The notes beneath the pieces are model-generated. The model ran no database searches and was not told the DNA's origin. It worked only from the letters and a program-made list of their open reading frames with translations. Positions 17,921 to 58,910 of a DNA stretch of 64,000 nt are shown piece after piece. A program made the translations under genes and the position numbers. Location of the stretch: the NCBI GenBank assembly GCA_029288895.1, contig JARIGK010000001.1, positions 134,682-198,681 on the forward strand. The letters run 5' to 3'. The first letter of the stretch is position 1, and every line of letters begins with the position of its first letter. Source of the stretch: Candidatus Adlerbacteria bacterium (GTDB lineage: Bacteria > Patescibacteriota > Minisyncoccia > Phycocordibacterales > SBAW01).

Positions 17921-18418
17921 TTGAACACCCATATGGGAGAAGGGCGGTCTATGTTTATATCAAAAAATGTGCCTGTGTCGGAAATCTGTGTTGCTGGGGC
18001 GAGGAGCTTCATGTGGTCGACCGATCTGAACTTGTTCGGGTTCGTCGATATCGAATGTATTGATGCGCCTGTACACTCGTTTCTCTGCGAGGGTAGGGAG
18101 GAGGAGGTCAAGCAGGGACGTCTGACCATGATTTCTGCGCTGTCAGGCATGAGCGGCCCCGTTTTTTCTGCGTGGGAGGAATCTACCCCAATCGCGAGGA
18201 CGCACTTCGCCCAAGTCCTCGCGCGCCAAGGCAGAGGTCAAGAAGAAGGCGAGCTGCTCGTTAACGGTACGGGCAACCTCTTTGTTGTCGGCAATAAAGA
18301 GGCCCACGTGGCTATCAAAGCATCGTGGGGGCAGGCAGGATGGCTTCTGGCGAAAGCAGACAGCTGTCTCCCGGGTGAGCGCTATGCCGCAGTGCGTGTA
18401 CGGAGTCCGAGCGTGTAA
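17921..18418 (+). CDS. Hypothetical protein
   Basis: 165-aa ORF. The stop TAA lies in the loop of the downstream terminator. Confidence 0.35.
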   Translation: MNTHMGEGRSMFISKNVPVSEICVAGARSFMWSTDLNLFGFVDIECIDAPVHSFLCEGREEEVKQGRLTMISALSGMSGPVFSAWEESTPIARTHFAQVLARQGRGQEEGELLVNGTGNLFVVGNKEAHVAIKASWGQAGWLLAKADSCLPGERYAAVRVRSPSV

Positions 18419-18438
18419 CGCTCGGACTTTTCTTTTTT
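18404..18438. terminator. Bidirectional intrinsic terminator
   Basis: AGTCCGAGCG TGTAA CGCTCGGACT followed by TTTCTTTTTT. Confidence 0.65.
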
Positions 18439-23248: not shown

Positions 23249-23279
23249 AGGCCTGACAGCAATGTCGGGCCTTTTCTTT
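23249..23279. terminator. Bidirectional intrinsic terminator
   Basis: AGGCCTGACA GCAA TGTCGGGCCT followed by TTTCTTTTT. Confidence 0.55.
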
Positions 23280-40767: not shown

Positions 40768-40862
40768 GACGGCCTTTTTCTTTGCATATACAAGAGAAAA
40801 GCGTAGGATGGCACACAGACGCGGTTACGCCGCCCGTTCTTACTCTTGTGGAGGACTATGCA

Positions 40863-41882: not shown

Positions 41883-41987
41883 TTATTACGGTAATGGGCG
41901 TTTAGGAGTAGAATCTTTTTCTATTACCCGTTTGATAGTTTTCACGATGCAACATTGTATAAAAAGAAAAGCTGTCCCGGAGGACAG

Positions 41988-42359
41988 CTAGTGTAAACGA
42001 AACTGATGCTGTACAAATTTTAGCTCGGCTGGTCGGATCAACCGCGAATGCGCCACACTCACTTTGTGGAGTTTGCCATCCAAATTCTTCTCCCAGAATT
42101 CCAAAAACCCAGTAAGTTTTGGAAAGCGAGGATGAAGATCCGTGTCCTGCCAAACATAACTCTGCAGAATATGTTTATGGTCGGGCATCCAGTAGAGAAT
42201 TTCTGCTGTTGTAATTCCGAAGCCCTTAAACAGTTCTACGAAATCTTTTGAGACAGATGCAGGCATCGTATGTCCCTCGCTCGTTGCTCCCGCTATAAGT
42301 AAAGCGCCGAACCTGTTCATCGTCAAAACGATCCTGTGAACTGTGTGGCCCGTGTTCAT
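41988..42359 (-). CDS. Usg-like family protein (tentative)
   Basis: ITTAEILYWMPDHKHILQSYVWQDTDLHPRFPKLTGFLEFW...LHKVSVAHSRLI resembles the Usg-like domain. Start may be the internal ATG at 42266. Confidence 0.4.
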   Translation of the reverse strand: MNTGHTVHRIVLTMNRFGALLIAGATSEGHTMPASVSKDFVELFKGFGITTAEILYWMPDHKHILQSYVWQDTDLHPRFPKLTGFLEFWEKNLDGKLHKVSVAHSRLIRPAELKFVQHQFRLH

Positions 42360-43277: not shown

Positions 43278-45065
43278 TTACTGAGGTAGTGTCTCCGTTG
43301 TATCGACGCTTTCTACTACAGCTGGAATTGGTTCAGGCAATTGGACACCATGCATCTTAACGCGTCGCGCATTCAATCGATTTTCTTGGCCAATTTGTAC
43401 TAAAGCTTTTGCAGCTCTCTCAGCAATGGTTTCCGTGTCATCTGCAGTCCTGTTGTTCAGACCACGAGCAGCACGAACAATGCGATGCATTCTATCGCCC
43501 TTTTCAGCCTTAAATATTCTGTAAAAATCTTCGACACTGAGCTTGCTTATTAATTCAGTATCTTCTGGATTCCAGCCATGTTTAATAATCATATCTTCTA
43601 ACACGTCAGCTGGGTTGCGGTCATCAACAAATCTGCTACGCGCTGCATCGAATGCCTGCGCAAGTTCCTCATCTCTTTCTCCATCGTCAAATAGACTTTG
43701 ACGTCCATCGAACAAATCTTTCTCGTCCCTGCGTTCTGTAACGTATTTGGTTATAAGCTCCGTTGCTTCCGTGTTTCTTCCAAACTCTTTGAGCAGCTTA
43801 ACTGTTGAGTTTAGATTGGAAGGGTGAAGGACTCCAATATTTTCCATCGACGCACTAAAAATTTTGTCCATCACTTCTTTTTCGTTATCGTCAAAAGAGC
43901 CGTGGTATGCAGTCCAAGCATCGTGTATATCCTGCTCTTGTTGGGCTTTGTTGGCCACCTTACTTTGCTTCTCAGCTGCCTTTAGGAGAGCTTCTTCATC
44001 AAAGATTCCACTCTGCACGGTCTTATGGATAGCCAAGTCAAAGTCATCAGCACTAAAAAATTTATACTTTGCCATCAACTCAGACCACTTCCTGTCCGTG
44101 TCTGGAATTTGGTTATTATTTCGCAACATACCATGCAGGCGCCCCATATCTGTTAAGAACTCGAATGGCGGCGGTTCGCCGTCCTTCTGATATTTTTCCC
44201 AACCGAATAGCGTTGCCGAGTGAAAGGCTTGGTAGAAAAGCTCTGAATAATCAGTTTGTAATATCCCTTCGAGTCGCGCGCAAATTCTCTCTATCTTTTT
44301 GAGTACTCTGATGTTGGTGATACCAAGAGTGACGCAAAAATCATGCAGCAGTTTTTTGTTACCCGTTGCATCTGCGTCAGGGAAAGCAATGTCCGCTGCT
44401 TCTTGAGGAGTCGGATCAAATTGCAGATGGGTATCAACGACCTTTTCAAGTTGTTTATGGAAAACTTCCTTTTGTCCATCCGCAATTTCTTCTTCGTTGA
44501 GCAAGAGAACAACTTTACACTTGCGTTGTTCTTTTAGCATGGATATAAGTCCGAATACTTCTATGACGTCCAATCCGTTCCCAGCTCTTTCAAGGTCGTC
44601 TATGCATATGATTTGTTCGCCCACAGAGTGAAAGAGAAGTTTTTCAGCTAGTGCAGTTCCGATGTAACTTTGGACTACGGGATTCTGACCCGCCTGCGTT
44701 AACAGCCACCGCACGGAAGAGCCGAGCGTGTCTCGTAAATTTTTCGGCTCCAAAGCTCCTAGTGTCCACTCCTCTCCGATTTTTTCAACGGGTTTTGTAG
44801 CTTCATAGATTGCGTAGCGCAAGTCGTCAATTTTCTTTACTCCAAATAACGATACATATGCGTAGCGCGTTAACTTAATCTTCCCAGCATCTTTTGCTTC
44901 TTTAAGAAAATAGTTCCAACCGTATGTTTTGCCAACGCCCCATTTGCCGCTAATACAAAGCACTTCAGGGTCGGCTCTTTCCAAAAAACGAGTTATTTCT
45001 GCTTTTACAAGTCGTATAGACACGCCCCTATTGTAGCGATAAAAGCTCATGTGAAAAGAGCTCAA
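43278..45065 (-). CDS. KAP-family P-loop NTPase (PifA-like)
   Basis: Walker A ISGKWGVGKT, KAP-type Walker B ICIDDLER, and a long alpha-helical C-terminal half; 595 aa. Confidence 0.8.
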   Translation of the reverse strand: MSSFHMSFYRYNRGVSIRLVKAEITRFLERADPEVLCISGKWGVGKTYGWNYFLKEAKDAGKIKLTRYAYVSLFGVKKIDDLRYAIYEATKPVEKIGEEWTLGALEPKNLRDTLGSSVRWLLTQAGQNPVVQSYIGTALAEKLLFHSVGEQIICIDDLERAGNGLDVIEVFGLISMLKEQRKCKVVLLLNEEEIADGQKEVFHKQLEKVVDTHLQFDPTPQEAADIAFPDADATGNKKLLHDFCVTLGITNIRVLKKIERICARLEGILQTDYSELFYQAFHSATLFGWEKYQKDGEPPPFEFLTDMGRLHGMLRNNNQIPDTDRKWSELMAKYKFFSADDFDLAIHKTVQSGIFDEEALLKAAEKQSKVANKAQQEQDIHDAWTAYHGSFDDNEKEVMDKIFSASMENIGVLHPSNLNSTVKLLKEFGRNTEATELITKYVTERRDEKDLFDGRQSLFDDGERDEELAQAFDAARSRFVDDRNPADVLEDMIIKHGWNPEDTELISKLSVEDFYRIFKAEKGDRMHRIVRAARGLNNRTADDTETIAERAAKALVQIGQENRLNARRVKMHGVQLPEPIPAVVESVDTTETLPQ

Positions 45066-45279
45066 ATGAGAAGAGTTCTTCAGAACAGCGCCGAGTGCTT
45101 CTGCAACACCTGTTCTTGAATCTCACATTGAAGGACAAACAGACGACCTACACGCTGAAAAGCCCATCGAGATACTTTCGATGAGGGTTCAAGAGAAGCT
45201 CGACGCCCAGAAAAACTTCGAACTCCAAAAAACGCCTAAAAGTAAGGCTCGTCTAGAATCTGTTTCGAAAATCGACCCT

Positions 45280-45322
45280 TTGCTCCGCGCGATAGAGGAT
45301 GTTCGAACCTGTATTGCGGTAA
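45280..45322. repeat. Direct repeat A (att-like): TTGCTCCGCG + GATAGAGGATGTTCGAACCTGT...
   Basis: The first 10 nt (45280-45289) match the tRNA-Asn 3' end and flank (53311-53320). Copy A aligns with copy B at about 79% identity. Confidence 0.5.
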
Positions 45323-45371
45323 CTATCTGACTCAAGTAAAGTGGCAGACGGCAGTTTTGAAGGAGACGACA

Positions 45372-45659
45372 ATGACCGTGTGGTTCCCGCGTTACTGGTG
45401 TATGGGGTGCGGAGCACGCTTCGTGTTGGAAGCCGATGCTCTTGAGACCAACCTGACTCCTGAAATCATCCTCTCAGCAATGAGTGCAGGGGAGGGTCCT
45501 TTCAAGCAGCTCAGGACGCATCATGACTGCGGCTTGCATAAAGCGCAAGAAGCAGGGAAGGCGTTGGGAGCTGGTGGGCCCGGGCTCTACTCTTCCAACT
45601 TCGAGCCTTATTGGGGCGAAGCGAAGTTCTGCGGTATGAAGAAGAAAGTTCCAACCTGA
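45372..45659 (+). CDS. Small CxxC protein, hypothetical
   Basis: SD site GGAGA upstream of the ATG at 45372. Begins MTVWFPRYWCMGCGARF. A terminator follows. Confidence 0.4.
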   Translation: MTVWFPRYWCMGCGARFVLEADALETNLTPEIILSAMSAGEGPFKQLRTHHDCGLHKAQEAGKALGAGGPGLYSSNFEPYWGEAKFCGMKKKVPT

Positions 45660-45688
45660 TGACATCCTGCGTTACGAATTTTAGAGGC

Positions 45689-45722
45689 CGCTATCCGCAA
45701 GGAGCGGCCTTTTCTTTTTTGT
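45689..45722 (+). terminator. Intrinsic terminator
   Basis: AGGCCGCT ATCCGCAAGG AGCGGCCT followed by TTTCTTTTTT. Confidence 0.5.
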
Positions 45723-45791
45723 CTAATTATAAAAGTTTTGATGTCCAATTGGGGTATCTAAAATACCCTTGCAAAATAATCTCCAAAAAAT

Positions 45792-45832
45792 GGCTCCGCC
45801 TGATAGAGGACGTTCGAACGTGTTTAAGGTAA
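45792..45832. repeat. Direct repeat B (att-like): GGCTCCGCCTGATAGAGGACGTTCGAACGTGT...
   Basis: About 79% identical to repeat A. Contains the perfect palindrome ACGTTCGAACGT. Confidence 0.5.
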
Positions 45833-45850
45833 AAACCTCCACTTTATGTT

Positions 45851-46645
45851 TCAGACATTTTTTGATAGATAATCTTTCATGACTGCTTTAGCGGCAAAGT
45901 CAAAAGCCGAAGCTGTTATAGGAAGCTTTGCGGCTGCTTTCGCAATATTTTTCCAATCCTCAGGCAGTTCTCCATTCCCAAGTTCTTCTTGGTAAGCAAG
46001 TAGCTGAACGACAAAATCATAATGGCCAGTACTCAAGGTCATGGCAAGCATTAATGCTTTGTGAATTTCTAGCTTCGGACCATAATTGAAATGATATTTA
46101 TTTCCTTTACCGCGGTATCCGTAAAGCTGTGAACCAAATGCGCTTGCGTGAGAACTTTTGCTCAATATTCTAAATGCCTTTTTGGCAGGTTTTCCTCCGT
46201 GAGCAACAATATCTCTTTCAATCGTTCCCTCACTGAAAGCATCCTTAAAAGCTGGATTTTTCTGATAATCATCCTCTGTTTCTTTGAGAAACAAATCACG
46301 AAGTTCTGGATGTGAAAAAAGATATATCAGCATTGATAAATCACTCATTATGCTTCTTACGATCACAAACGCATCTCCGTACAACCCTCTTTCCATAAGT
46401 ATCCTTATCGTTTCAAGATGTTGAATAGACCTGTTCACCAACATAAGTTGGATCGTTTTGAATTTCGCTTCTTCGGTGCCCGGAGTCTCTTTTACTTCAT
46501 TAATCAGTAATGCGACTGCATCTTTCAGAACCCCTAGACCTTCCCAATAAATGGGATAAAGCAGACTGAGAGTCATTTTTGTGCTCTCTTTAATTTCTAG
46601 TTCCAGCGTTTCAAAGTCTCGTCTTCCTTCCACTGGTTTAGACAT
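45851..46645 (-). CDS. Hypothetical protein (third gene of the LexA-like / Y-family-polymerase operon)
   Basis: 264 aa, alpha-helical. Ends 32 bp downstream of the polymerase gene. Confidence 0.4.
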   Translation of the reverse strand: MSKPVEGRRDFETLELEIKESTKMTLSLLYPIYWEGLGVLKDAVALLINEVKETPGTEEAKFKTIQLMLVNRSIQHLETIRILMERGLYGDAFVIVRSIMSDLSMLIYLFSHPELRDLFLKETEDDYQKNPAFKDAFSEGTIERDIVAHGGKPAKKAFRILSKSSHASAFGSQLYGYRGKGNKYHFNYGPKLEIHKALMLAMTLSTGHYDFVVQLLAYQEELGNGELPEDWKNIAKAAAKLPITASAFDFAAKAVMKDYLSKNV

Positions 46646-46677
46646 ATTTATGTAGATCCTAGCATGTTTAAGAGCGA

Positions 46678-47982
46678 TTATTTAACCTCACCAAGCATCG
46701 GTATTCCTATGCGTTGACGTCTATTTTCACCTTTGAATAGTTTAGATGTGCGACCTGGGGCATCGCCTCGTTCGTTTGTGTGAGCGCCCCGCTTCATGGC
46801 TTTCATAGTGGAACCTAGGTAGACAGTGTGTTTGCCGAACTTACTGTCCATTGCATCAACTGCCGCATAGACGGGCTTCCATTTAATAATCTCAGATACT
46901 GCCCCAAATAAGTCCATCTGTATTTCTTTATTGTGCTCAAGCCCCATCAATACAACGCCAGTAGCACGGTAGGGTGTGCGAGGGCGATACACCTTATCAA
47001 ACGACTCACGCACAAGGCGAATAAACTCGTTAGGTAATGATTGAGGAGTGGCAAGTGTTAATTCAAGTCCTGAATAGCGAAACTCTTGAGTCTTAAGAAA
47101 GAAGAATATCTTCTTAGGCGCAAGCTCATACCGACGCGCCTTGATACAGGCATTTTCAATATTCTTTGAGAGTTGGGAGAACACGAACTCTTTGTCAGCA
47201 GATGCAGGAGTAAATGTTTTGGTTTTACTTATGCTCTGGTAGTCGTGCTTTTCCTCAGTTGTGAGGGGGTACACAAACTCTCCACGTAGCTCGTGCCATA
47301 TCTCGCGATACGGTTTGCTCATGTTCGCGTCTATCCACTCAACGGGCTTTTGAGCGTATTGGAGAGATGTCTGAATGCCGTGTTGTTTCAAGAAAGCAGA
47401 TGTCTGTGGGCCAATGCCCCAGATTTTATCTATCGGGAGTTTGCTTAAGTACGTCTCTACTCTGTTTGCAGGGATAATAGTCAGCCCCGATGGTTTCTTC
47501 CACTTGGAACCTACCTTTGCAAGCACCTTATTTGGTGCGAGGCCGATAGAAAAGGTCATTCCAAGTTCTGTGTCCAAGTCGTGCTTTATGGCCTCTGCTA
47601 TGGCCTCATATGACATCCTGAGAGACCTGCGCATGCCTGTTAAATCAGCAAAGCATTCATCAATACTGTATTCCTCAACAGCCTCTGTATATCGCCTCAC
47701 AATGGCGTACATACGCTTAGAGAAGAGACTGTAGGTCTCGTAGTCAGAAGGGAGAATGATGACCTCGGGGCATATCTTTTTAATCTCTCGCAGAGACATG
47801 CCACGCTTCACGCCCATAGCCTTCAGCTCGTAGCTCATGGAAGATGCGATGCCGCGTTCTTTGCCAGTAACCACAGGTTTGCCTTTAAGTGCTGGGTTTA
47901 CGGCGGCTTCGCATGACGCAAAGAACGAGTCCCCATCAATATGTATTATTGCGCGGGGGAATGAGCGGATAGAGAGCGGCAT
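46678..47982 (-). CDS. Y-family DNA polymerase (UmuC/DinB-like)
   Basis: HIDGDSFFASCE (Y-family motif I), SIDECFADLTG, and little-finger region; 434 aa. Confidence 0.85.
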   Translation of the reverse strand: MPLSIRSFPRAIIHIDGDSFFASCEAAVNPALKGKPVVTGKERGIASSMSYELKAMGVKRGMSLREIKKICPEVIILPSDYETYSLFSKRMYAIVRRYTEAVEEYSIDECFADLTGMRRSLRMSYEAIAEAIKHDLDTELGMTFSIGLAPNKVLAKVGSKWKKPSGLTIIPANRVETYLSKLPIDKIWGIGPQTSAFLKQHGIQTSLQYAQKPVEWIDANMSKPYREIWHELRGEFVYPLTTEEKHDYQSISKTKTFTPASADKEFVFSQLSKNIENACIKARRYELAPKKIFFFLKTQEFRYSGLELTLATPQSLPNEFIRLVRESFDKVYRPRTPYRATGVVLMGLEHNKEIQMDLFGAVSEIIKWKPVYAAVDAMDSKFGKHTVYLGSTMKAMKRGAHTNERGDAPGRTSKLFKGENRRQRIGIPMLGEVK

Positions 47983-47983
47983 A

Positions 47984-48544
47984 TCAGTATTTACGGATTA
48001 CAGCTTGTACAACAGCTTCTATTGTGAGTTCGTTCTCAGGATAAATATCTTTGAATTTTTTATTTGCCGCTTGGAGAAATACTTTGTTTCCTTCCTTGCG
48101 GTAGTACTTCATAGTGTACTCGCCGTCTACTTGGGCAATGACAATCTGCCCTGGCTTTGGGGTTTTACCACGTTCAACCAGCACCATATCTCCCTCCATA
48201 ATTCCTGCATCAATCATTGAGTCACCTTTAACTTTGAGCATAAAAGTTGCCTCTTTATTTTTTATCAAGTATTCATCCAAGCTCATCGTGTCCACCAACT
48301 CTTCTTCAGCAGGGGAAGGGAAGCCTGCTTCTACTGTGCCAAGAAGAGAGACAGTATTTAGAAGATCGCGAGGGATGAGTTTACCTTTCTTGTCTTTGCT
48401 AACAACTCCAGAATCTATGAGTTTTTGAACTGCATATTGGGTTGCGCCCTTGCTTTTATATCCAAGCAGCAGAGACAACTCGCTGTATGAGGGCATACGA
48501 CGATGTTTTTTGTAGAAGGAAAAGAGTTTGCTTTGAGGCGTCAT
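47984..48544 (-). CDS. LexA/UmuD-like S24 peptidase with an N-terminal wHTH
   Basis: N-terminal DNA-binding domain. GDSM Ser nucleophile and a downstream Lys (MKYYRKEG). Ends 2 bp before the polymerase gene. Confidence 0.75.
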   Translation of the reverse strand: MTPQSKLFSFYKKHRRMPSYSELSLLLGYKSKGATQYAVQKLIDSGVVSKDKKGKLIPRDLLNTVSLLGTVEAGFPSPAEEELVDTMSLDEYLIKNKEATFMLKVKGDSMIDAGIMEGDMVLVERGKTPKPGQIVIAQVDGEYTMKYYRKEGNKVFLQAANKKFKDIYPENELTIEAVVQAVIRKY

Positions 48545-48601
48545 CCCCTCAGTATATTAGTACGTTCGTACTAGTGTCAAACTCAGCTTATCTTAGCGTT
48601 T

Positions 48602-49606
48602 TTACCAGAACTTGAGCCAATTAAAGATGCTTTGCCATATAGGTCTTTTTGGAAATCCAGGTATTGTCGTTGTGGTAGAATTTTTAACCGCCGACACTGC
48701 TGAGGTACTGACAGAGCTAGATGCAGATTTCTTTATGGAACCAGCTGAAAAATCTTTTAATTGTGAAGGCGCTTTAATCGTTGGCGGCGGTGTTGAGACG
48801 GGTAAAGTCACTGATTGGGAACCTTCCTCGACACAGGTCGTTTGATCTGCGTTGAGTTCGTACCCTTCAGCGCAACTACATAGATTCTGGCCCGCAACAA
48901 TCCCATGCGGACCTAGCTTTTGATTACAAAGTTCGATGGGGTCTGGGCCGGAAGGAACACAGGATGTCTTGCTGGAGTCCATCTTATAACCCTGATCGCA
49001 GTAGCAGCCAGCCCCTGTATTGGTGGAATTTGGTGGACATGAGGATGTGGGCACAGGTTGTGTGACAGCTTTTATCTGCGAGGAATATTGTTTATAAAAA
49101 TTTGCTTGTTGTTGGAGAAATTCCGTATCTCCTAAGGCATAGCATTCTGTGTACGCTTGGTTAGAAGCAACTCTGTAGTTGCCAAGGGCGATTTGCATAA
49201 TACTTGAAAGCTTTAAAGCATCAATTGCTTTTTGACGGTCGCAAAAAGATTGAGTATCTCCTTGGCAGGGAACGTAATAAGAAGCAATAACCGCATCTGC
49301 TGCATCTCGAGCTTTATTTGCCAAGCTATCGAGATTATATTTTGCATTTATAGATTGAAATTCGCTGGCAGTGCAAAGATGCAGCGAGTCGGTACATTCG
49401 TTGGTACTCCAATACGAAACAGTGCTATCAGCCCAGCCATCATTACAAATTACGCTTCCATCCCAATCTGATCCCGCCCTACAATTCACTCCGCCGTGGT
49501 AAGAGCAGGCTCCAGAAGTTGCGAAGGTATGATTTGAAAAACTTAAAAAAAAGAGTGCCAGAAATAGTCCCGTAAAGACTGCTTTTCTCATTCTGCAATA
49601 GTGCAT
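48602..49606 (-). CDS. Secreted cysteine-rich protein (EGF-like Cys spacing), hypothetical
   Basis: Signal peptide. More than 20 Cys in repeated CxxxC / CxC contexts, with a C-terminal S/T-rich tail. Confidence 0.45.
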   Translation of the reverse strand: MHYCRMRKAVFTGLFLALFFLSFSNHTFATSGACSYHGGVNCRAGSDWDGSVICNDGWADSTVSYWSTNECTDSLHLCTASEFQSINAKYNLDSLANKARDAADAVIASYYVPCQGDTQSFCDRQKAIDALKLSSIMQIALGNYRVASNQAYTECYALGDTEFLQQQANFYKQYSSQIKAVTQPVPTSSCPPNSTNTGAGCYCDQGYKMDSSKTSCVPSGPDPIELCNQKLGPHGIVAGQNLCSCAEGYELNADQTTCVEEGSQSVTLPVSTPPPTIKAPSQLKDFSAGSIKKSASSSVSTSAVSAVKNSTTTTIPGFPKRPIWQSIFNWLKFW

Positions 49607-49680
49607 GTTCTCTTCACAAAAGTACAGGGACTCAAGTGAATACTCGAAATCATCCTTTTATTGGGCTATATTAACGACAA

Positions 49681-50592
49681 ATGAGTATGAGATGGCCTAA
49701 AAAAAGGAGGACGGCATATTCTGTAACATCTCAGGCAAAAAATCATTTCTTTTCTTATATAGACAGCCTTAAGGTGAGAACTTTGATCGATGAGTTAAGA
49801 AGGGAGTTTGGCATTCCAAAAAATGGGTTCAGACATAGACCCAAAAAAGAAAATTCAGAAAGAAGGCCTTATTATCCCGATGAATACTGCATATATGTCT
49901 CTCCCTCGGGAGTTCTTTCGCCAGAACAAAGAAGGCTTTATAAGTTGATGAATGAAAAAGAAAAGGTGCTGGAAAAAGCCCTTGATAAATTAATGGAGAA
50001 ATTTGAGATTTGGCCCCATGATTTCTGGAGGAACGTTTTCTCTATCTATTTATTTCATGGTGAAGTTCCTGAAAAGTACTTCAAATACAGTTATACAAAA
50101 GAATTTTCGCCTGGTGGATTAATTCCGGACATTTGTTATGTCTATCCTCTTAACGATAGATTGCTCATAGAACTGAGAGATTGGGAGAAGCTAGGCGAAG
50201 ACGATGAAGTCAAAGTTTGGTACTTCGACGCCTTAAAAGAAGTTGCTCACAAATACCCTGTAGGGATTTTATTGTCACCATACATATCACTGACTCAGCT
50301 AAAAGCCTACATTTCTAAACAGTGGCCGGTAATTGAACGACAGCTAGATAATGCGTATATGCAGAAAGCATATGCAGACAATGAGGTCTTACAAAATTGG
50401 TCATTAGGTCGCACAAAACCGCGTGTTCTTCGGGAAAGAGATTCTTTCATAATGAAGTTACATCTCGAAGGTAAAGATCGAAAAACTATACTAGCAAGGG
50501 TGGTGAAGCGCTACGGAAAAAGAAATATGGATGCAAATTATATAAGCACAATTATTGCTCGAGAAAAGAAACACAACAGCGACCGTTCATAG
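49681..50592 (+). CDS. Hypothetical protein (island cargo)
   Basis: 303 aa, basic N-terminus, AT-rich codon usage unlike the core genes. Confidence 0.4.
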   Translation: MSMRWPKKRRTAYSVTSQAKNHFFSYIDSLKVRTLIDELRREFGIPKNGFRHRPKKENSERRPYYPDEYCIYVSPSGVLSPEQRRLYKLMNEKEKVLEKALDKLMEKFEIWPHDFWRNVFSIYLFHGEVPEKYFKYSYTKEFSPGGLIPDICYVYPLNDRLLIELRDWEKLGEDDEVKVWYFDALKEVAHKYPVGILLSPYISLTQLKAYISKQWPVIERQLDNAYMQKAYADNEVLQNWSLGRTKPRVLRERDSFIMKLHLEGKDRKTILARVVKRYGKRNMDANYISTIIAREKKHNSDRS

Positions 50593-50637
50593 TTATTGTT
50601 GTCGCCATAGAGGGTTCGCTGGGAATATAGTTTTCCC

Positions 50638-50898
50638 ATGCTGAATGAAAATGACCTGTTCGAAACCAGCGATCTGCCACTCGTAGCAGCTCTCCTTTCG
50701 CATGGGGCAAAGATTGAGTTTCTGGAGCGAAATGGTGGCCCACGGGTCAGCTTCTATTTCCGCCGAGAACGGGCTCTAGATAAGCTCGTAGAGGCCTTTT
50801 GGGCGCACTCACTTACAGTTGAGCCACTCCAGTATTTTAATGCCTTGAAAGAAGCGAAAACGCGCCTTTATGGTGTGCCTATAATCTATGGAAATTAG
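50638..50898 (+). CDS. DUF5659-like small protein
   Basis: LFETSDLPLVAALLSHGAKIEFLERNG...FYFRRERALDKLVEAFW...ALKEAKTRLYG fits the DUF5659 pattern. Confidence 0.45.
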   Translation: MLNENDLFETSDLPLVAALLSHGAKIEFLERNGGPRVSFYFRRERALDKLVEAFWAHSLTVEPLQYFNALKEAKTRLYGVPIIYGN

Positions 50899-51039
50899 CC
50901 TGGAAAAACTAGAGGAATTTATAGCTCTATATCGCCAGGAATATGGATTGGATCTAACTCCGGCTGAAGCTCTGGAGCAGGCAATTCCTTTAATTTTACT
51001 CGTGCAAATTGTTAAGAATTGATAAGTTCCGAATGAAAA

Positions 51040-51522
51040 ATGAATATGGAACCGATTAAAAACTTTGTACCTTTCCCTCGTCGAATCTTAAGCGACGTTC
51101 TTAATGGACGCATGAGTGGTCCAGAGTTTTTTGTATATGCGTGGATACGTGGCAAGGGCAATCCTTATGCAGTTTCCCAAGTATCAATCCCGGAAATTAG
51201 GGCTGCCTACCCTGGCACAGTCAGCGACAATCATATCTATAAACTCATTCGCTCCTTACGAAAGAAGAAGTACCTTTACTACCCGGACCGTGCTGGACGT
51301 AGAGGTTCGTTCGAGGTGCATATGGGCGAATGGACACTACCTGACGGGAGTTTTAAGACTCTGGAAAGATTCTTTGTGCAGCAAACAGTCAGAACTTCAC
51401 AACCGGCGTCACCTCCAGTTCGCCCAGAGGTTAGGGATGAAAACAAAGACGTTAATCAGGGGTTCGAAATGATGAAAAAACATATGGCAGAACGTTTTAA
51501 ACTACCTCCTTCGAATGAATGA
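51040..51522 (+). CDS. Hypothetical protein (possible DNA-binding/replication function)
   Basis: 160 aa, basic. Confidence 0.35.
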   Translation: MNMEPIKNFVPFPRRILSDVLNGRMSGPEFFVYAWIRGKGNPYAVSQVSIPEIRAAYPGTVSDNHIYKLIRSLRKKKYLYYPDRAGRRGSFEVHMGEWTLPDGSFKTLERFFVQQTVRTSQPASPPVRPEVRDENKDVNQGFEMMKKHMAERFKLPPSNE

Positions 51523-51737
51523 ATCAGAGCTTACTAGAATGAGAATAAGAAAAAGAAAAATATATCTTTGTCGAACTTATTCGCCTCTTTTTGGCTTTGA
51601 TTCTTTGATTAAATATCAAAATAATCAAAATTTATTCCGCCATGGAATTATCGGACATTATGGGAGGCTTTTTGACACTATAAAAAGGGATTTTTGGGAG
51701 CAGTACGCGCGTAGAAGCGAGAGATATACTTAACGTT

Positions 51738-53352
51738 ATGGAAGGTGCCAAGAAATACATTTTGTACGCTCGTAAAAGCTCCGAGTCTGAAGATAGACAA
51801 ATGGCCTCGATTGATTCTCAGGTACAAGAGCTTCAAAAACTCGCTGCAGAGCTTCGTTTAGAGGTCGTAGACGTGCTTTCGGAGTCTCAGTCTGCCAAAG
51901 CTCCGGGCAGGCCTGTTTTTAATACCCTGCTCGCTCGGATTCAGGCTGGAGAGGCCGATGGCATCCTTTGTTGGAAGATTAATCGTCTGGCTCGTAACCC
52001 GATAGATGGCGGACAGATAAGCTGGTTGCTCCAGGGCGGAACGCTGAAGCATATACAGACCTTTGGTCGAGGCTATTACTCCACCGACAATGTCATCATG
52101 ATGGCGGTGGAGCTTGGTATGGCGAACCAGTTTATCCGTGACCTAAGTACTGACACAAAGCGTGGATTGAAAGCCAAGGCAGAGCGCGGCTGGTATCCAA
52201 CTTTTGCTTCCATCGGGTATATGCACAATCCTTATAAACACAAAGGGCAAAAAGAAATAATCGAGGATCCAGAACGTTTTGATTTGGTGCGGAAGATGTT
52301 CGACTTTATGCTCACGGGCAACTACACTCCGCCCAAGATTTTAGAGCTGGCCAACGATCAGTGGGGTCTTCGAACTCGCCAGGGCAATAAAATAGCTCGA
52401 AGTAATATCTACCGTATTTTTTCTGATCCCTTCTACTACGGCGAATTTGAGTACCCCAAAGGCAGCGGTAACTGGCACAAAGGACAGCACAAAGCGATGA
52501 TAACAAGGCAGGAGTTCGACCGAATCCAGTTTTTTGATTGGACGCAAGGATTCAATACGACCCAAGACCTATGAATTTGATTTCAGAGGACCAATCCACT
52601 GTGGTGAGTGCGGAGCAATGATCACCGCAGAACATAAACTCAAGCGCCAGAAGAATGGGCTGGTTCGAAGCTATATTTATTACCACTGCACAAAACGCAA
52701 ACAGATTGCCTGCTCCCAGCCGTCAATCGAAGAAAAAGAGCTAAATCGGCAGATATCTGAAATCGTTGGAAGATTGGAAATACCCGAATCGTTTTATAAG
52801 TGGGCCATGGACATCCTTAGAGAACAAAACGCAGTGGAGTCCAAGGGCAGAGAGCAGATCGTCGCCCGACAAAGAAAAGAATACGATTTAGTAATGGAGA
52901 AAATAGATCGACTGATCGATCTGAGGTCTGCAGGGGAAATCACGGCAGATGAGTTTGCGGACAGGAAGCGCTTTTTAAACGGTGAAAAAAGCGCTCTGGA
53001 GGCTCTCTTGGCCACGACAGCCGCCGGGGTCAGTGAGTGGCTAGACACCGTCGATAAGTATTTTTCATTTGCTGAAAGTGCCAAGCGCGCGTTCGATCAC
53101 GGCACTCTGGAGATAAAACGGGAGATTTTAGGGGCTCTTGGTTCGAACCTTCTTTTGAAAGATAGGAAATTGAGCGTCAGTCTCGCTAAACCTCTGACTC
53201 TTATCGAAACGGTAGCTTCTGAAGCTCGCACTATTAGCCAAATGTTCGAACCTCTAGACACCGTTGTTAAACAACGTGATATCAGACAAATCTACTCTGA
53301 AAATCCTAACTTGCTCCGCGACCAGGACTCGAACCTGGAACCAACTCCTTAA
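51738..53352 (+). pseudogene. Large serine recombinase (integrase), disrupted by a +1/-1 frameshift in a T6 run
   Basis: ORF1 (51738-52574) is the resolvase catalytic domain (YARKSSESEDRQ) plus recombinase domain. ORF2 (52534-53352) is the zinc ribbon (CGECGAM...C) plus coiled-coil. Deleting one T at 52530-52535 fuses them. The 3' end overlaps tRNA-Asn by 39 nt. Confidence 0.8.
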
Positions 53353-53385
53353 CAGGGAGCTGCTCTACCATTGAGCTATCGCGGA
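53314..53385 (-). tRNA. tRNA-Asn (anticodon GTT)
   Basis: Cloverleaf folded by hand: 7-bp acceptor stem UCCGCGA/UCGCGGA, D-arm GCUC/GAGC, anticodon loop CUGUUAA, variable loop UGGUU, T-arm CCAGG-UUCGAGU-CCUGG, discriminator G. CCA is not encoded. Confidence 0.85.
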
Positions 53386-53591
53386 ATGTTTTTGACCGCT
53401 TGCGCGGCTGTGAGAAATATAGCGTATTTAGGGCAAGAAGAAAACCCTCCCTGCGCGGTTGAGGGTGTGGGGTACATTTCTAACCGCTGCCTACGCGGGA
53501 TTTCTGTTTTTCAATTTATATAAATTTTATAACTATTTGATGCACTATCTGCTAGGGTCAAAAAAGAGGGAATACGGGAAAGCGAGGGGGA

Positions 53592-53813
53592 ATGAATGCG
53601 GAAAAACTGCTTGAGTTCTATCGCTATCAAGAAAAGTTTTATTCGAGTAAAATCGAAGAAACGCGCGCCATAGCGAAGGACGCCCATACTGCAGTAGTTA
53701 AAAGAGGATGGGAGGTGTTGATCCAGCATTGGGAGCGCATGCATACAAACGCTCAGGCCCAGATCTGTGCATTAGAAAAACAGATAGAGGACCAACGCCA
53801 CAGTAGGCAGTAG
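53592..53813 (+). CDS. Small hypothetical protein
   Basis: 73 aa with SD-like GAGGGGGAATG upstream. Confidence 0.3.
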   Translation: MNAEKLLEFYRYQEKFYSSKIEETRAIAKDAHTAVVKRGWEVLIQHWERMHTNAQAQICALEKQIEDQRHSRQ

Positions 53814-53849
53814 GTCCTCTTTTTCTGTCTCACGTTGTGTGTTGTTTTT

Positions 53850-54527
53850 TTACTGCACAACTATTGTTGCCGTTGCAGTGTCGCCGCCAGTGCCAAGGAA
53901 GGTGTAGGTGTACGTGCCGGGGATGCTCGGGAGGCGGACGCTGCCTGTCGAGAAGTTGCCGCCGCCATCTGCGTGTGCGTGTGCCACCTGCATACCACTC
54001 ATCATAACCATGACATCTTCTTCAGCCATAAAGTTGTGACCGCCGAAATCAATTTGGTCGCCCGCTGCTTTCATCATGCCCTGTTGGTCGATGTGCGCGA
54101 CGCCCATCATTGGTGGAGTTGTGGTGCCGCCGTCTGGCATTGTAGTGGTACCCATGCCAAGGAGGTAATGGATAAACCATTCAAGTTGCGAGGTGAAGTT
54201 GGGGAAGGTAGGTTCGAGCCCACGCAATGCACTGATAAACGAATTCAAGTCGCCGGACGTTGGCGGAGTTGTAGTGCCTGTGGTGCTTGTGCCTGTTGAT
54301 GTGCTAAAAACAGTGCCCGTGAGCATACCTTGGAGCATGCTGCTTGTTGTGGACGACGTTGTTGTTGCAGTTGTCGATGTTGCTGTTGCAGATGATGCGT
54401 CAATAACAGTCCCTGTTAATGTGTTCGATGTCGAAGTGGCTTGTTGTGCATGAGCGAGCGCAGTAGTGCTACCAATACCAATAATGAGCGCCGCACTCAT
54501 GAGCCACAGTATGTTCTGTGCTCTCAT
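53850..54527 (-). CDS. Secreted Ser/Thr-rich protein, hypothetical
   Basis: Signal peptide (MRAQNILWLMSAALIIGIGSTTALAHA), T/S-rich linkers, and a Met/His-rich segment. Confidence 0.45.
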   Translation of the reverse strand: MRAQNILWLMSAALIIGIGSTTALAHAQQATSTSNTLTGTVIDASSATATSTTATTTSSTTSSMLQGMLTGTVFSTSTGTSTTGTTTPPTSGDLNSFISALRGLEPTFPNFTSQLEWFIHYLLGMGTTTMPDGGTTTPPMMGVAHIDQQGMMKAAGDQIDFGGHNFMAEEDVMVMMSGMQVAHAHADGGGNFSTGSVRLPSIPGTYTYTFLGTGGDTATATIVVQ

Positions 54528-54675
54528 CGAACAACTCTACGCCTCGCGTAGTAAATGGTGGGTGAACCCATGCGCACAAAGTTGCTTTTTTTCAAAAGTA
54601 ATGTAGAGTTTTGGGCGGATAGACTCCCGCGGTGCGTATGTGTCGCCGTGCAATCTGGGTGAGGGAATACATACT

Positions 54676-55443
54676 ATGTGGACCTTTTTCAAAGCGTTTG
54701 GCGCTCTTCTGGCGTTCAAATACTTAGTGTTTTGGATGGAAACGAAGTATCACTTCGTGGCCAACTTCATCGCGAACTCGCAGGGTATCATCGCGCAGAA
54801 GGTGCCGTCCGTCCTAGGGCTTCCTGTCACTGCGATGTCTGTCGCGTTTGCGGCCAGTATCGTCGTGGCAGTGGTCTGCTCGATCAGGTGGCCAATGCTT
54901 ATGCCAGCACTTATCGTCATGAGTGTTGTCGAATTGCTGGCGTTCTTTCCGCAGATCAACCAGCACTTCGACAATCCGCAGACGGCGTTCTGGTCTCTGA
55001 ACGGCGCGATCTCAATCGTGGTCTCGGCGTTCCTGCTCGACCGCCGCGAGATGTGGCACGTCTATAGCTTCTGGCGAGTGGTTTCCAAACTGGTCTTGCC
55101 GGTTGCTTTCGTCGCGATCAACTTCGCGCTGTCTCTGATCTATGCCAACGTCGCGTTCAACGATAAGCGCTTCTGGATCTCGGGTCTGCTTATCGTGGCC
55201 TCCTGCACGACGGTGTTCTTCACCAGCCTTCTGGGCCTCGAAGATCTGGCGTTCTCGATCCGTAACGCGAGGCGCCTGCCCAAGATCGAGGATGATCTGA
55301 AGAAAGCCAACGAGGAAGTCGTCCGTCTGCAAGGGTTGGTCTCCAAGCCGACGCTTGTTCCTGAAACGCCGGCTCCTCCGGCAGCTCCTACCACTCCAAC
55401 TCATTTGAAGGCCGTTACAATCGAACGGGCGCGGGCGAGTTAA
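54676..55443 (+). CDS. Hypothetical polytopic membrane protein with a coiled-coil / Pro-rich tail
   Basis: SD site GAGGGA upstream of the ATG at 54676. About six TM helices. Confidence 0.45.
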   Translation: MWTFFKAFGALLAFKYLVFWMETKYHFVANFIANSQGIIAQKVPSVLGLPVTAMSVAFAASIVVAVVCSIRWPMLMPALIVMSVVELLAFFPQINQHFDNPQTAFWSLNGAISIVVSAFLLDRREMWHVYSFWRVVSKLVLPVAFVAINFALSLIYANVAFNDKRFWISGLLIVASCTTVFFTSLLGLEDLAFSIRNARRLPKIEDDLKKANEEVVRLQGLVSKPTLVPETPAPPAAPTTPTHLKAVTIERARAS

Positions 55444-55472
55444 TCTCAAGCTCGAGTCGATTTTTCTGCCTT

Positions 55473-55510
55473 GGCCGGACCCTTCACGGGGCCCGGCCTT
55501 TTTCTTTTTT
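55473..55510 (+). terminator. Intrinsic terminator
   Basis: GGCCGGACCC TTCAC GGGGCCCGGCC followed by TTTTTCTTTTTT. Confidence 0.6.
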
Positions 55511-55604
55511 CAAAAGCTTGCAAAATTTAATAGTTGTGGTATTAAATATATTGTTGAGTTCTCTATAGTAGAAGCCCAAAAAGGGCAGAAAGGCAGAGTG
55601 AAAA

Positions 55605-56351
55605 GTGACAGATGCAACCGTGCCGGGCGCCAAAGAGGCCCCGGCTGCTACGCCGCTCCCGAAGGTTCTTCGGGAGAAGAAGGTCATCGAATTCGTGCAT
55701 TGCTATTCGCACGGGCTCGCGATCTACTACTGGCCGCTGTTCGTCGTGCCGCTGATTATGGGCGTGCTCGTCCATTTCGGCGTCGTCGGCGGCAAGGCCG
55801 CATGCTGGACGGTGATTTTTGCCTACTACCTGGTCGGCAACGTCGCCTTCGACCTCTCAAGGACGGCCGCTTTCGCGCTTGGCGCGTTGGTGTTCGGTCT
55901 TGTGATGGCCGCGCTCTTCGCCCAGGCGCAGTGGCAGATCCCGTTCTTCCACTGGCTCGGCGTCCAGCTCTCGTCCATTCCGATGGATTGGACATTGGAG
56001 GTGCAGGGTATTTTCTTCACCCTCGCGGCGATCTTCTTCGGCCTCTGGTGCTACGAAATCGTGGATTCCATCACGGACGGCAAGTGGGTGTTCTCGCGCA
56101 ACGAGTTCGTCCACGATCAGTGGGGTCGTCGTGACAAGAGCCTGGCTCGCGGCCAGTGCACCGTCACGGTCTCGACGCCCGATCGCTTCAAGTGGCTTCT
56201 CGGCTTGGGCGGCGCCCAGATCGAGATCCATGCTGCGGAGGACAACAACCGCGTCCATGCGATCATCCCGAATGTGATCTTCGGCGCCCGCAAGGGCCGG
56301 CAGATCCATGCACTACTGCAAGCGTTGCAGGTGGTCAAGCTCTCATCGTAG
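55605..56351 (+). CDS. Hypothetical membrane protein (4 TM + soluble C-terminal domain)
   Basis: GTG start. GC3-rich codon usage. Confidence 0.4.
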   Translation: MTDATVPGAKEAPAATPLPKVLREKKVIEFVHCYSHGLAIYYWPLFVVPLIMGVLVHFGVVGGKAACWTVIFAYYLVGNVAFDLSRTAAFALGALVFGLVMAALFAQAQWQIPFFHWLGVQLSSIPMDWTLEVQGIFFTLAAIFFGLWCYEIVDSITDGKWVFSRNEFVHDQWGRRDKSLARGQCTVTVSTPDRFKWLLGLGGAQIEIHAAEDNNRVHAIIPNVIFGARKGRQIHALLQALQVVKLSS

Positions 56352-56373
56352 GGCTTCGGCGCACAAACATAGA

Positions 56374-56408
56374 GCCGGTATCCCACAAGGATGCCGGTTT
56401 TTCTTTTT
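56374..56408 (+). terminator. Intrinsic terminator
   Basis: CCGGTATCC CACAA GGATGCCGG followed by TTTTTCTTTTTC. Confidence 0.5.
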
Positions 56409-56470
56409 CTATACATGATCTTGACAAAAGGGGATAGATAGTTGCATAGTATTCTCAGGAGGACATAGAT

Positions 56471-56650
56471 ATGCTCAAAAAGGTCTCGGAGTTTCTGCTC
56501 AAATGCTTGGGCAAGCTCGCGCTTTCGACCATGGTCATCGGGCTCTGTTTCCTGGTCGCCGTGGTGTTTTCAATGATCGGCGCTTCAATTGAATCGCTTG
56601 GCCACACCATCGAACACGCGGCCCAGCAATTTGAAGTGGGCACGCACTGA
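56471..56650 (+). CDS. Small membrane protein (59 aa), hypothetical
   Basis: SD site AGGAGGA 7 nt upstream of the ATG. One TM helix. Below the ORF-track cutoff. Confidence 0.35.
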   Translation: MLKKVSEFLLKCLGKLALSTMVIGLCFLVAVVFSMIGASIESLGHTIEHAAQQFEVGTH

Positions 56651-56662
56651 AGGGAGAAGGAC

Positions 56663-56971
56663 ATGGTTTCTGCAATCCGCAGATGGTATCTGTATGATCG
56701 ACGCAACGCCAGGCAGGGCATCTTCTTAATGGTGGCGACCGCGCTTTGTTTGGGTGGTGCGTACATGTTGCCACGCCCAGAAGAGACGGGGCCGCTGCCC
56801 GAGCCGACGACGTCCAGTTGGACCATCAAGTGTTATGAGGCGAGGAGCCTCGAGGTGGATCAGCTGATGCGCAAAATCGCGCAGTCGCAGACCATGCGGG
56901 GGTATAGATACCTCGGCAATGGCTATGGCTGCAATGATGCGCACGCCGTGGCGGAGTACATCATCGATTAG
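56663..56971 (+). CDS. Small membrane-anchored protein (102 aa), hypothetical
   Basis: SD site GGGAGAAGG upstream of the ATG at 56663. One TM helix. Confidence 0.4.
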   Translation: MVSAIRRWYLYDRRNARQGIFLMVATALCLGGAYMLPRPEETGPLPEPTTSSWTIKCYEARSLEVDQLMRKIAQSQTMRGYRYLGNGYGCNDAHAVAEYIID

Positions 56972-57094
56972 CTGGGCAACCAGCGCAAACAAAAGGCTCA
57001 GGCGAAATCCTGGCCTTTTATTTTTTCAGTACCCTTGACTATTTTAATTTTTAAAGTATAAATACATCGGAAACTTTCACAAGGAGGAACAGCC

Positions 57095-57865
57095 ATGGAG
57101 CTGTCGCATTTACTGCTGTATTTTTCGGAACTGATGTGCGCCCTGGTCTGCTGGGAAATGCTCAAGTTGGGCATGGACCACCAGACCGCGAAGTGCCGCA
57201 TCGCACAGGGTGCTGAAGGTGCGCATGAAGTCGGGCAGTTCGCTCCCGGCTACTTCACCTTCCTCACCGTCCAAACCTTCCCGCTATTGTTAACAGGGGT
57301 GGTCATCGGCGATGTGTTCATCACACTCACGCGTAGCGCTATGCTCGGCATCGCGCTCGTGACGTATGCCCTGACGATCAGCGCTGATGGTGCGCTCGAT
57401 AATAAGCGCATGCGGTGGTGGGCACGCTTCTGGATCATCGCGCTCATATTGGGCACGATGGTATGGAAACAGTCTCCGGAAGTGCGCGGCTTCGTGCACG
57501 ACTGGGAGAAGTGGATTGCGGCGGCATCGGTAATCACGATGCTCGTATTTTTCTTCTTCGGCCAGCTGCGCGTGGGGTTACAGCTCTGGCGCCACTTCCT
57601 TGGTGGCAACACCACAAACAAGCGTCTGAGCATCCAGTTCAAGCGCCTGCTCTACTTCGCACCGCAGGCCATCTTCTATGGGATGGTGCCGTCGTCGGCG
57701 GACCCGATCAGCCTCCCGTTCCTGAGCTTCTTGGGGACGTTCGATCCGATCTTCTTCAATGGTGTCACCGGCACCCTCGGCGTCATCTTCGTCCTCGCGC
57801 TGGCCTTCTTTGGCAAGCTGTTGGGCGCAGGCAATCGTACGCAAGATACGATGGCGCGAGCCTAA
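57095..57865 (+). CDS. Hypothetical polytopic membrane protein
   Basis: SD site AAGGAGGA upstream of the ATG at 57095. Six to seven TM helices. Confidence 0.45.
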   Translation: MELSHLLLYFSELMCALVCWEMLKLGMDHQTAKCRIAQGAEGAHEVGQFAPGYFTFLTVQTFPLLLTGVVIGDVFITLTRSAMLGIALVTYALTISADGALDNKRMRWWARFWIIALILGTMVWKQSPEVRGFVHDWEKWIAAASVITMLVFFFFGQLRVGLQLWRHFLGGNTTNKRLSIQFKRLLYFAPQAIFYGMVPSSADPISLPFLSFLGTFDPIFFNGVTGTLGVIFVLALAFFGKLLGAGNRTQDTMARA

Positions 57866-57871
57866 TACATG

Positions 57872-57917
57872 GGCCGCAGAATGAATTCATACTTCATTCT
57901 GCGGCCTTTTCTTTTTG
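57872..57917 (+). terminator. Strong intrinsic terminator
   Basis: 14-bp stem GGCCGCAGAATGAA / TTCATTCTGCGGCC followed by TTTTCTTTTT. Confidence 0.75.
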
Positions 57918-58015
57918 GAAATACACTCTCAGGGAAGAGCTAGACATTTCAAAAAATTATGCTATAACTACGTCAGACGATAAAATTCAAATTCAAGCAA
58001 GAAGGAGAAGGGACC

Positions 58016-58861
58016 ATGAGTCCTGAACAGGAACAGTTGCTAATGGACCAGGAGTCCAGAACCAGGCTCCCGGACCCCGACGAGGTGCTCAACTTCGGTT
58101 ACTCGATCTACGTGGCCGACGATGACTCTTCGACCCCGCAGTCGCGGTTGGTCGCCAGACACAACGTGCGGCGACATCGCATGACGCAGCCCCGAAATGA
58201 TGTCGAGAGAGCATATCTTCTCTCGGCTCATGATATCGCCGTGGCATTCAGCCGTTCGCTGAGCAGGCGCAAGGGGCTCTGGCTCCAGGAGATACGGGAC
58301 GCTCGAGAAGAATACGATTTCGAGCGACTGAGACTGGCGGAAGCCAGAAAGGAGATGGCGTTCTTCACCATCAGCTGGGGTCTCGTCAAGATGGCCGCTG
58401 TGGCCCTGCTCGGGTACGTCACCGCGCAGGTCATTGGGTTCTTCATCCCTGCAGACATCGCCAGCGAAACTGGGAGTAAAATCCCTGGCATCCTTGGCGG
58501 CCTAGTCTTCGTCTGCTTCTTTCGCTGGCTCGTATCAACCTTCAACGACCAACGTCGCGGCGAAGTCGACAGTCGGTATCGTCAGCGTATAACGGAAGCG
58601 AACGATGTCTACGACGAGGGCAAACTTTCGGAGTTCCGCCTCTACCAGGCGAAGCTCTGTGAAGCCTGGCTCCAGTACACCGCGGAGGAGTACGTGAGTA
58701 AGATCTCGTACGTCGATGTCATGGAGAGCGATCTCCGTGCTCGTCGTCAGATCCAGCGCCGGTTGAACAACAGCCGCACGCTCACGGTCGCTCTTCGAGT
58801 GTTCCGTCTGCAGAAGGCCATCCTTGTGCAGATCACACGCAGGCGTCGCGCTGTCGCCTGA
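58016..58861 (+). CDS. Hypothetical protein with two central TM helices
   Basis: SD site GAAGGAGAAGG upstream of the ATG at 58016; 281 aa. Confidence 0.45.
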   Translation: MSPEQEQLLMDQESRTRLPDPDEVLNFGYSIYVADDDSSTPQSRLVARHNVRRHRMTQPRNDVERAYLLSAHDIAVAFSRSLSRRKGLWLQEIRDAREEYDFERLRLAEARKEMAFFTISWGLVKMAAVALLGYVTAQVIGFFIPADIASETGSKIPGILGGLVFVCFFRWLVSTFNDQRRGEVDSRYRQRITEANDVYDEGKLSEFRLYQAKLCEAWLQYTAEEYVSKISYVDVMESDLRARRQIQRRLNNSRTLTVALRVFRLQKAILVQITRRRRAVA

Positions 58862-58868
58862 ATCTTTG

Positions 58869-58910
58869 GCCGCATCAGGGGTAACACCTTGATGCGGCTT
58901 TTCTTTTTTA
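58869..58910. terminator. Bidirectional intrinsic terminator
   Basis: GCCGCATCAGG GGTAACACC TTGATGCGGC followed by TTTTCTTTTTT. Confidence 0.55.

Follow-up and report, generated by a model that had tools for sequence, protein, structure and literature searches.

Gene organisation between fmt and tRNA-Asn

When analysing a 64,000 nt stretch of the chromosome of a Candidatus Adlerbacteria bacterium (from here on referred to as the window), a block of about 4.2 kb with a high G+C content at third codon positions (GC3) appeared between fmt and the gene for tRNA-Asn (54640–58861). It contains six open reading frames (ORFs), g1–g6, all located on the plus strand and encoding proteins of 255 or 267, 248, 59, 102, 256 and 281 amino acids (Table 1). 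We consider the block, with a probability slightly above even (about 0.55), to be a foreign insertion specific to the strain or species, made up of five transcription units and arranged as a mosaic around a core, g2-(micro-ORF)-g5-g6, in which g5 would encode a carrier.

Hydropathy analyses placed at least one transmembrane (TM) segment in each of the six proteins which, together with the ORFs, agrees with the original prediction of six co-oriented genes for uncharacterised membrane and micro-proteins. For g1 an alternative GTG start at position 54640 gives an ORF of 267 aa (54640–55443), and its protein shows at least four TM segments followed by a coiled-coil-like stretch and a Pro-rich tail (GC3 0.73). 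In g6 the loop of the TM hairpin is conserved with the sequence PAxIAxETGSKxPG. An all-against-all BLAST revealed no paralogy among the six proteins and no paralogues were found elsewhere in the window. Scans of the six proteins and their two neighbours against Pfam, NCBIfam, PHROGs and PADLOC gave nothing significant, and neither did scans of the soluble domains of g2 and g6 in isolation; for these two proteins there was no profile or PDB sequence match either. The claim that none of the proteins resembles a known family consequently holds at the sequence level but not for the fold of g5, which was recovered by structure prediction (see below), while the model of g2 proved unusable. The C-terminal domain of g2 was modelled as strand-strand-strand-helix with a predicted local distance difference test score (pLDDT) of 46, which is not trustworthy, and a relation to the bacterial PH domains (bPH_2/YdbT-like) gave no Pfam match on the isolated domain.

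Putative Shine-Dalgarno sequences, all present as earlier quoted, are situated ahead of g3 (AGGAGGA), g4 (GAAGGGAGAAGG), g5 (AAGGAGGA) and g6 (GAAGGAGAAGG). Intrinsic terminators, consisting of a hairpin and a T-tract, were identified after five of the genes (g1, g2, g4, g5 and g6), and the proposed 14 bp stem was confirmed as a perfect stem (I11) at 57872–57885/57893–57906. A scan of the region listed 18 terminator-like sites, compared to 6.9 ± 2.5 in shuffled sequences, and in a strict scan of the whole window three out of the 11 strong terminators fall inside the block. A single operon was not supported, with five terminators inside the block and promoter-like boxes ahead of g2, g3, g5 and g6; these signals between the genes point to five independent transcription units (g1, g2, g3-g4, g5 and g6), each with its own predicted terminator.

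The strong terminators throughout the window share an interrupted T-tract, TTTCTTTTT(T), for example at 10053–10090, 18402–18440, 23249–23282 and 41960–41989. The same tract was found in two contigs carrying homologues of the block genes (L015 and L016) and it looks like a terminator style used across the lineage.

Table 1. Genes and putative transcription signals in the region downstream of fmt (positions in the window)
Feature	Position	Strand	Description
tRNA-Asn (GTT)	53313–53385	-	1.25 kb from g1 with two ORFs in between; sole Rfam match
g1	54676–55443	+	255 aa from ATG at 54676 (NCBI product P0031)
g2 promoter-like site	55518–55545	+	TTGCAA, 16 nt, TATTAA, with TG ahead; identified by eye, not in scan list
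g1 terminator	55473–55510	+	Imperfect GC-rich hairpin followed by TTTTTCTTTTTT; inner part listed by scan; tail family D1
g2	55605–56351	+	248 aa; four TM helices followed by a highly conserved, beta-rich C-terminal domain of ~90 aa
g2 terminator	56371–56410	+	From scan; equivalent hairpin behind the g2 homologue in L015
g3-g4 promoter-like site	56421–56450	+	TTGACA, 18 nt, CATAGT; from scan, 10/12 matches
g3	56471–56650	+	Micro-protein, 59 aa, one TM (ORF call, hydropathy)
g4	56663–56971	+	102 aa, N-terminal TM anchor (ORF call, hydropathy)
g4 terminator	56995–57026	+	From sequence; inner stem in scan; tail family D1
g5 promoter-like site	57035–57062	+	TTGACT, 16 nt, TATAAA; identified by eye, not in scan list
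g5	57095–57865	+	256 aa, seven TM, predicted SWEET/PQ-loop (MtN3-like) fold; probable carrier
g5 terminator	57871–57917	+	Stem of 14–15 bp followed by TTTCTTTTT
g6 promoter-like site	57941–57968	+	TAGACA, 16 nt, TATAAC; identified by eye
g6	58016–58861	+	281 aa; cytoplasmic N-terminal region of ~113 aa, 2-TM hairpin, helical basic C-terminal region
g6 terminator	58868–58909	+	Borders directly on the stop codon of fmt, which is convergent

Relatives of the block genes and their neighbourhood

Searches with a word index covering 5.8 billion proteins revealed few relatives. The protein of g1 matched only itself (P0031), while for g2 one protein of 66% identity was found (P0004 in L013), located on a 4.8 kb Logan contig among unrelated orphan neighbours. 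The g6 protein matched itself and a 93 aa stretch inside a chimeric-looking contig of 821 bp. The word-index searches missed homologues of 47–50% identity that were later found through the genomic contexts of g5, and the orphan status is conservative only for g1. Exact look-ups of g5, g6 and P0001 gave no record, although NCBI contains proteins identical to them. No homologue of g3 or g4 was identified in any of the fetched loci, no wider search having been made for these two. An exhaustive search with g5 showed a small family of 26 representative clusters with proteins of 245–310 aa. Scans of JGI metagenomes and IMG/VR found nothing and the phage and plasmid collections contained no match at either the protein or the DNA level.

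When comparing the neighbourhoods of these homologues a partly conserved gene order appeared. The contig L015 (2.2 kb, CPR-like, i.e. resembling the Candidate Phyla Radiation) harbours a g2 homologue (50% identity), a terminator, an ORF of 45 aa with a single TM, a g5 homologue (56%), a terminator, a promoter and a g6 homologue (47%) which is cut by the contig end. The 45 aa ORF occupies the position of g3 but does not align with it. In L016 a g5 homologue (45%) is followed by a promoter, a g6 homologue of 296 aa (49%), a terminator and then ordinary chromosomal genes, and this locus has further genes in common with loci of the Adlerbacteria type. Alignments between the contigs also cover the terminator hairpins, the -35 box of g6 (with an aligned CTGGACA box ahead of the g6 homologues in L015 and L016) and the leader of g5, AACTTTCACAAGGA..GGAACAGCCATG. 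A more distant pair was found in L023, a g5 relative of 27% identity together with a distant relative of g6 (hhalign probability 93.6%, E 2e-7). The two genes point away from each other, separated by a single TM-containing ORF, and the locus adjoins rpoA-rpsD-rpsK-rpsM-infA. An ORF of 185 aa in L023 was compared with g1 and g2 and showed no relation to either. Other distant g5 relatives, on contigs with 62–65% GC, stand as single genes amid housekeeping genes.

From these contig comparisons we conclude that the module g2-(micro-ORF)-g5-g6 is inherited, g5-g6 being its tight core. As a set of six the genes are not conserved; as judged from the same loci, only g2, g5 and g6 co-occur elsewhere. 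This bears on the original prediction, in which a single laterally acquired system for the envelope or for transport is made up of all six genes, its parts acting together. The genes are indeed co-oriented and contiguous, with elevated GC3 throughout, they all encode membrane proteins, and three out of the six recur in the same order at another locus. However, g1 matched nothing but itself in the protein index and g3 and g4 have no homologues in the fetched loci, L015 lacks g4 and L016 lacks g2, g3 and g4 beside g5-g6, and both g2 and g5 also occur alone, each unit in the block having its own terminator and promoter-like site. A six-gene system was not supported and we regard it as improbable. 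The expectation of a shared neighbourhood was borne out for g2, g5 and g6 in L015, and for g5-g6 also in L016 and L023, but not for g1, g3 and g4, and homologues scattered singly were found as well (g2 in L013, g5 in L018–L022).

The g6 protein, with its 2-TM hairpin and flanking helices, could also be a 2-TM pore former of the SLATT-like kind, and some of the genes might then encode effectors that act at the membrane to defend against phages or exclude them; the block lies in a variable region beside an island with a KAP NTPase. Against this, the SLATT profiles of Pfam did not match g6 or its two homologues, PADLOC gave no families for any of the proteins at E values up to 1, no sensor or enzyme partner is present, and g6 is linked to a protein with a transporter fold instead. 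A role in defence is therefore very improbable.

Two of the contigs found in these searches deserve a comment of their own. In L013 (1–4798, Logan SRR15461344) all ORFs are orphans and GC3 is 0.66–0.84 throughout; it could be a fragment of an organism or element of higher GC content that exchanges genes with CPR bacteria. In L001 (1–821, ENA ERZ28570778) a protein of 247 aa combines a g6-like middle part (77% identity over 93 aa) with the C-terminus of a 3-methyladenine glycosylase (Adenine_glyco), most likely an artefact of chimeric assembly or of a gene call that read through.

Composition and absence from related loci

The third codon positions of the block were earlier said to be strongly G/C-biased compared with def-fmt and murA, and this was confirmed and extends to the rest of the window. 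The block genes have GC3 values of 0.72–0.82 against a mean of 0.616 in 40 core genes (standard deviation 0.047, maximum 0.73), corresponding to z = 2.2–4.4 for the six genes and a Mann-Whitney p = 8e-5. Core genes encoding hydrophobic proteins have an ordinary GC3 of 0.55–0.63, so the amino acid content of membrane proteins is not the cause of the high values. The codons TTC, ATC, AAG, GCG, CTG and CCG are more frequent in the block while CGC, GAC, CAC and TAC, which are preferred by the host, are less frequent; the shift is not monotonic and is not a mere strengthening of the host bias. The homologues of g2, g5 and g6 are also rich in GC3 (0.69–0.82), with the exception of the cut g6 fragment in L015 (0.43). 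In total three compositional classes could be seen in the window, the core, a low-GC3 island at 43278–53352 (mean 0.42) and the high-GC3 block, the latter two flanking tRNA-Asn.

The relatives of fmt, at 74–81% identity, belong to metagenome-assembled genomes of Candidatus Adlerbacteria/Paceibacterota, which identifies the host as a member of the CPR. The order mreB-murA-def-fmt is kept in all of these loci, and tblastn searches of L002–L011 revealed no homologue of g1–g6 within 10 kb of fmt. In the closest relative, L002, tRNA-Asn begins 40 bp past fmt, in L006 two small unrelated genes are located between fmt and tRNA-Asn, and in the other relatives the DNA downstream of fmt varies from genome to genome. 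Since the genes are absent from the related loci examined, and tRNA-Asn in L002 follows fmt within 40 bp, the block is interpreted as an insertion. Judging from the comparison with L002, the inserted DNA comprises 53386–58907, of which 54640–58861 is the high-GC3 portion. Composition and absence from the syntenic site in related Adlerbacteria agree with the lateral acquisition suggested by the original prediction.

An alternative is a native origin of the genes, which would be lineage-specific and strongly expressed, with the high GC3 and the strong Shine-Dalgarno sequences and terminators reflecting selection for expression. The terminator tail TTTCTTTTT is of the genome-wide style, the ORFs of highest GC3 outside the block reach 0.69–0.73, and the homologues on other contigs are also GC3-rich. 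On the other hand, the genes are missing from the syntenic site and the surrounding ±10 kb in the related loci examined, tRNA-Asn follows directly after fmt in L002, the codon shift reverses the preference of the core genes for Arg, Asp, His and Tyr, and hydrophobic membrane proteins of the core remain at ordinary GC3. We find a native origin unlikely, though it is the strongest of the alternatives considered.

The tRNA-Asn junction and the recombinase island

The block had been described as next to a tRNA-Asn hotspot. The tRNA is indeed nearby, but at the distance given in Table 1 and with two ORFs in between. The first of these (53592–53813, plus strand) encodes a helical orphan protein of 73 aa, the second (53850–54527, minus strand) an orphan of 225 aa in which long Thr/Ser-rich tracts and an N-terminus resembling a signal peptide were seen. 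The GC3 of the two is core-like (0.53–0.55), and neither has relatives in the related loci according to tblastn.

The block is situated on the 5' side of tRNA-Asn while an island with a serine recombinase abuts the 3' end. When searching 53386–58907 no recombinase was found among the ORFs or by family scans, and no flanking repeats or copies of the tRNA sequence were found around the block. It resembles tRNA-linked genomic islands in having a deviant composition, in being absent from close relatives and in its position next to a tRNA proven as an integration site. It differs from them in lacking both an integrase of its own and direct repeats, and in lying on the 5' side of the tRNA; a recombinase together with attachment repeats at the tRNA 3' end is thus not part of it.

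These features also bear on the possibility that the block is left over from a prophage or some other mobile element, consisting of moron-like genes with their own promoters and terminators at a tRNA-Asn integration hotspot. The layout of each gene is moron-like, a serine-recombinase island lies across the same tRNA, and recombinases are found downstream of fmt in L006–L008. Nevertheless, the block sits at the 5' side and the recombinase element at the 3' end, flanking repeats and PHROG matches are lacking, IMG/VR and the phage and plasmid collections gave no matches, and the homologues sit amid chromosomal genes. The consistently chromosomal context of the g2, g5 and g6 homologues argues directly against a phage origin, which is regarded as highly unlikely.

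The low-GC3 island encodes a KAP-family NTPase, a DUF5677 protein, proteins resembling UmuC and UmuD, and a large serine recombinase. The 3' ends of the recombinase gene and of tRNA-Asn overlap by 40 nt. In the window two overlapping frames (51738–52574 and 52534–53352) make up the recombinase, while its relatives in L006, L007 and L008 are unbroken with 546–583 aa; the split is due either to a frameshift that makes the gene a pseudogene or to an error in the sequencing. The serine recombinase of L006 overlaps the tRNA 3' end in the same way as in the window. At 11714–11800 of L006 a 14 nt copy of the tRNA-Asn 5' end and upstream bases (ACATTCCGCGATAG) was identified ~60 nt upstream of the real tRNA-Asn, and the two copies bracket a palindromic, GC-rich insert. 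This duplicated 5' end may be the scar of an earlier insertion. Elsewhere in the window (40782–41831, plus strand) a TctC-family protein, the receptor of tripartite tricarboxylate transporters, was identified (Pfam E 1e-64), a solute-binding protein unexpected in a reduced CPR genome.

The fold of g5

In the model of g5 (pLDDT 92.7) two bundles of three TM helices are connected by a seventh, linking helix, and in Foldseek searches the model agrees with PDB structures of this fold and with viral PQ-loop proteins. All seven TM helices lie in one chain and adopt the 3+1+3 fold known from SWEET, PQ-loop and KDEL-receptor proteins. No sequence method connects g5 with these proteins, so that its family is new in sequence although the fold is known. 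Within the family R80, G99 and R184 are invariant and D73, Q157 and Y195 nearly so, and no Pfam family of any kind was found in the 21 members that were scanned. A weak hhalign self-alignment places Q60/Q191 and D73/D217 in register.

SemiSWEET and PnuC, belonging to the same structural superfamily, are the usual prokaryotic members (Feng & Frommer 2016, as cited in PMC5972207). SemiSWEETs are half-units of ~100 aa with three TM helices, which form dimers. In g5 a single chain carries all seven TM helices, which rules it out as a SemiSWEET. As a PnuC it was likewise rejected, with a poor structural match to 4qtn (Foldseek E 1.9, TM-score 0.15). With the eukaryotic SWEET sugar uniporters (OsSWEET2b, 5ctg; AtSWEET13, 5xpd) g5 shares the fold but only 8–14% identity. 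The PQ-loop carriers (cystinosin, 7zk1/8dke, and giant-virus PQ-loop repeat proteins) differ in that g5 has neither a PQ-loop Pfam match nor a significant repeat and is a bacterial protein, not one of lysosomes or vacuoles. The 3-TM SemiSWEETs are the norm in bacteria and 7-TM-helix MtN3-like proteins are rare, with 20 described, all having a detectable MtN3_slv motif (PMC5972207). This motif is missing from g5, which has the invariant residues of its own listed above.

The earlier suggestion of a transport-adjacent system is supported for g5, by its modelled transporter fold. That g5 and its relatives are a family of full-length 7-TM SWEET/PQ-loop-fold carriers so far overlooked in prokaryotes, working in Patescibacteria with a dedicated 2-TM partner (g6) and often g2 as a small, shuffled uptake module, is put forward tentatively and is rather doubtful as a whole.

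Origin and possible function

Taken together, we propose that compositionally foreign DNA was placed between fmt and tRNA-Asn in the Candidatus Adlerbacteria chromosome. The core module g2-(micro-ORF)-g5-g6 would be inherited and common to a few other Patescibacteria-like genomes, with g1, g3 and g4 as orphans and lineage-specific additions to it. The g5 protein would carry a small solute through the membrane, using an alternating-access mechanism. For g6, with its 2-TM hairpin and long cytoplasmic helical arms, we infer a role as accessory or regulatory partner of g5, and g2 is maybe a third, looser associate.

Several observations weigh against this interpretation. The comparison set is limited to about 10 related loci. 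No mobility gene or flanking repeat marks the route by which the block arrived, and its terminator tails are in the genome's own style, so it may have resided there for a long time. For g5 the TM-scores in Foldseek are just ~0.45–0.55, there is no MtN3_slv or PQ-loop Pfam match for g5 or the 21 family members (E up to 1) and no PDB sequence match (E up to 10), and the internal repeat is not significant by sequence (hhalign of residues 1–100 against 135–256, probability 0.25%, E 0.24). The proposed carrier role derives from the fold. The association of the core genes is also not strict, with g5 lacking g6 in the non-CPR contigs L018–L022, g2 lacking g5 and g6 in L013, and no neighbour of ~280 aa among the proteins listed for the contig of P0007.

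Should the transporter role not hold, the block would be no more than an ordinary stretch of hypothetical membrane proteins specific to the lineage, and membrane proteins without annotation are common among CPR genomes. At this locus the fmt/tRNA-Asn junction in Adlerbacteria is seen to be a two-sided hotspot, with the low-GC3 recombinase island on one side and the high-GC3 membrane-protein block on the other. A protein with a 7-TM MtN3-like fold that is invisible to sequence profiles would extend this transporter superfamily in bacteria. The CPR/Patescibacteria have tiny genomes, obtain many metabolites from their hosts and have a membrane proteome that is mostly unannotated. Here g5 offers a specific candidate for the uptake of metabolites, together with a recurring partner gene, and if the carrier family suggested above is real, the horizontally shuffled uptake module would help episymbiotic, auxotrophic CPR cells to draw a metabolite from their hosts.

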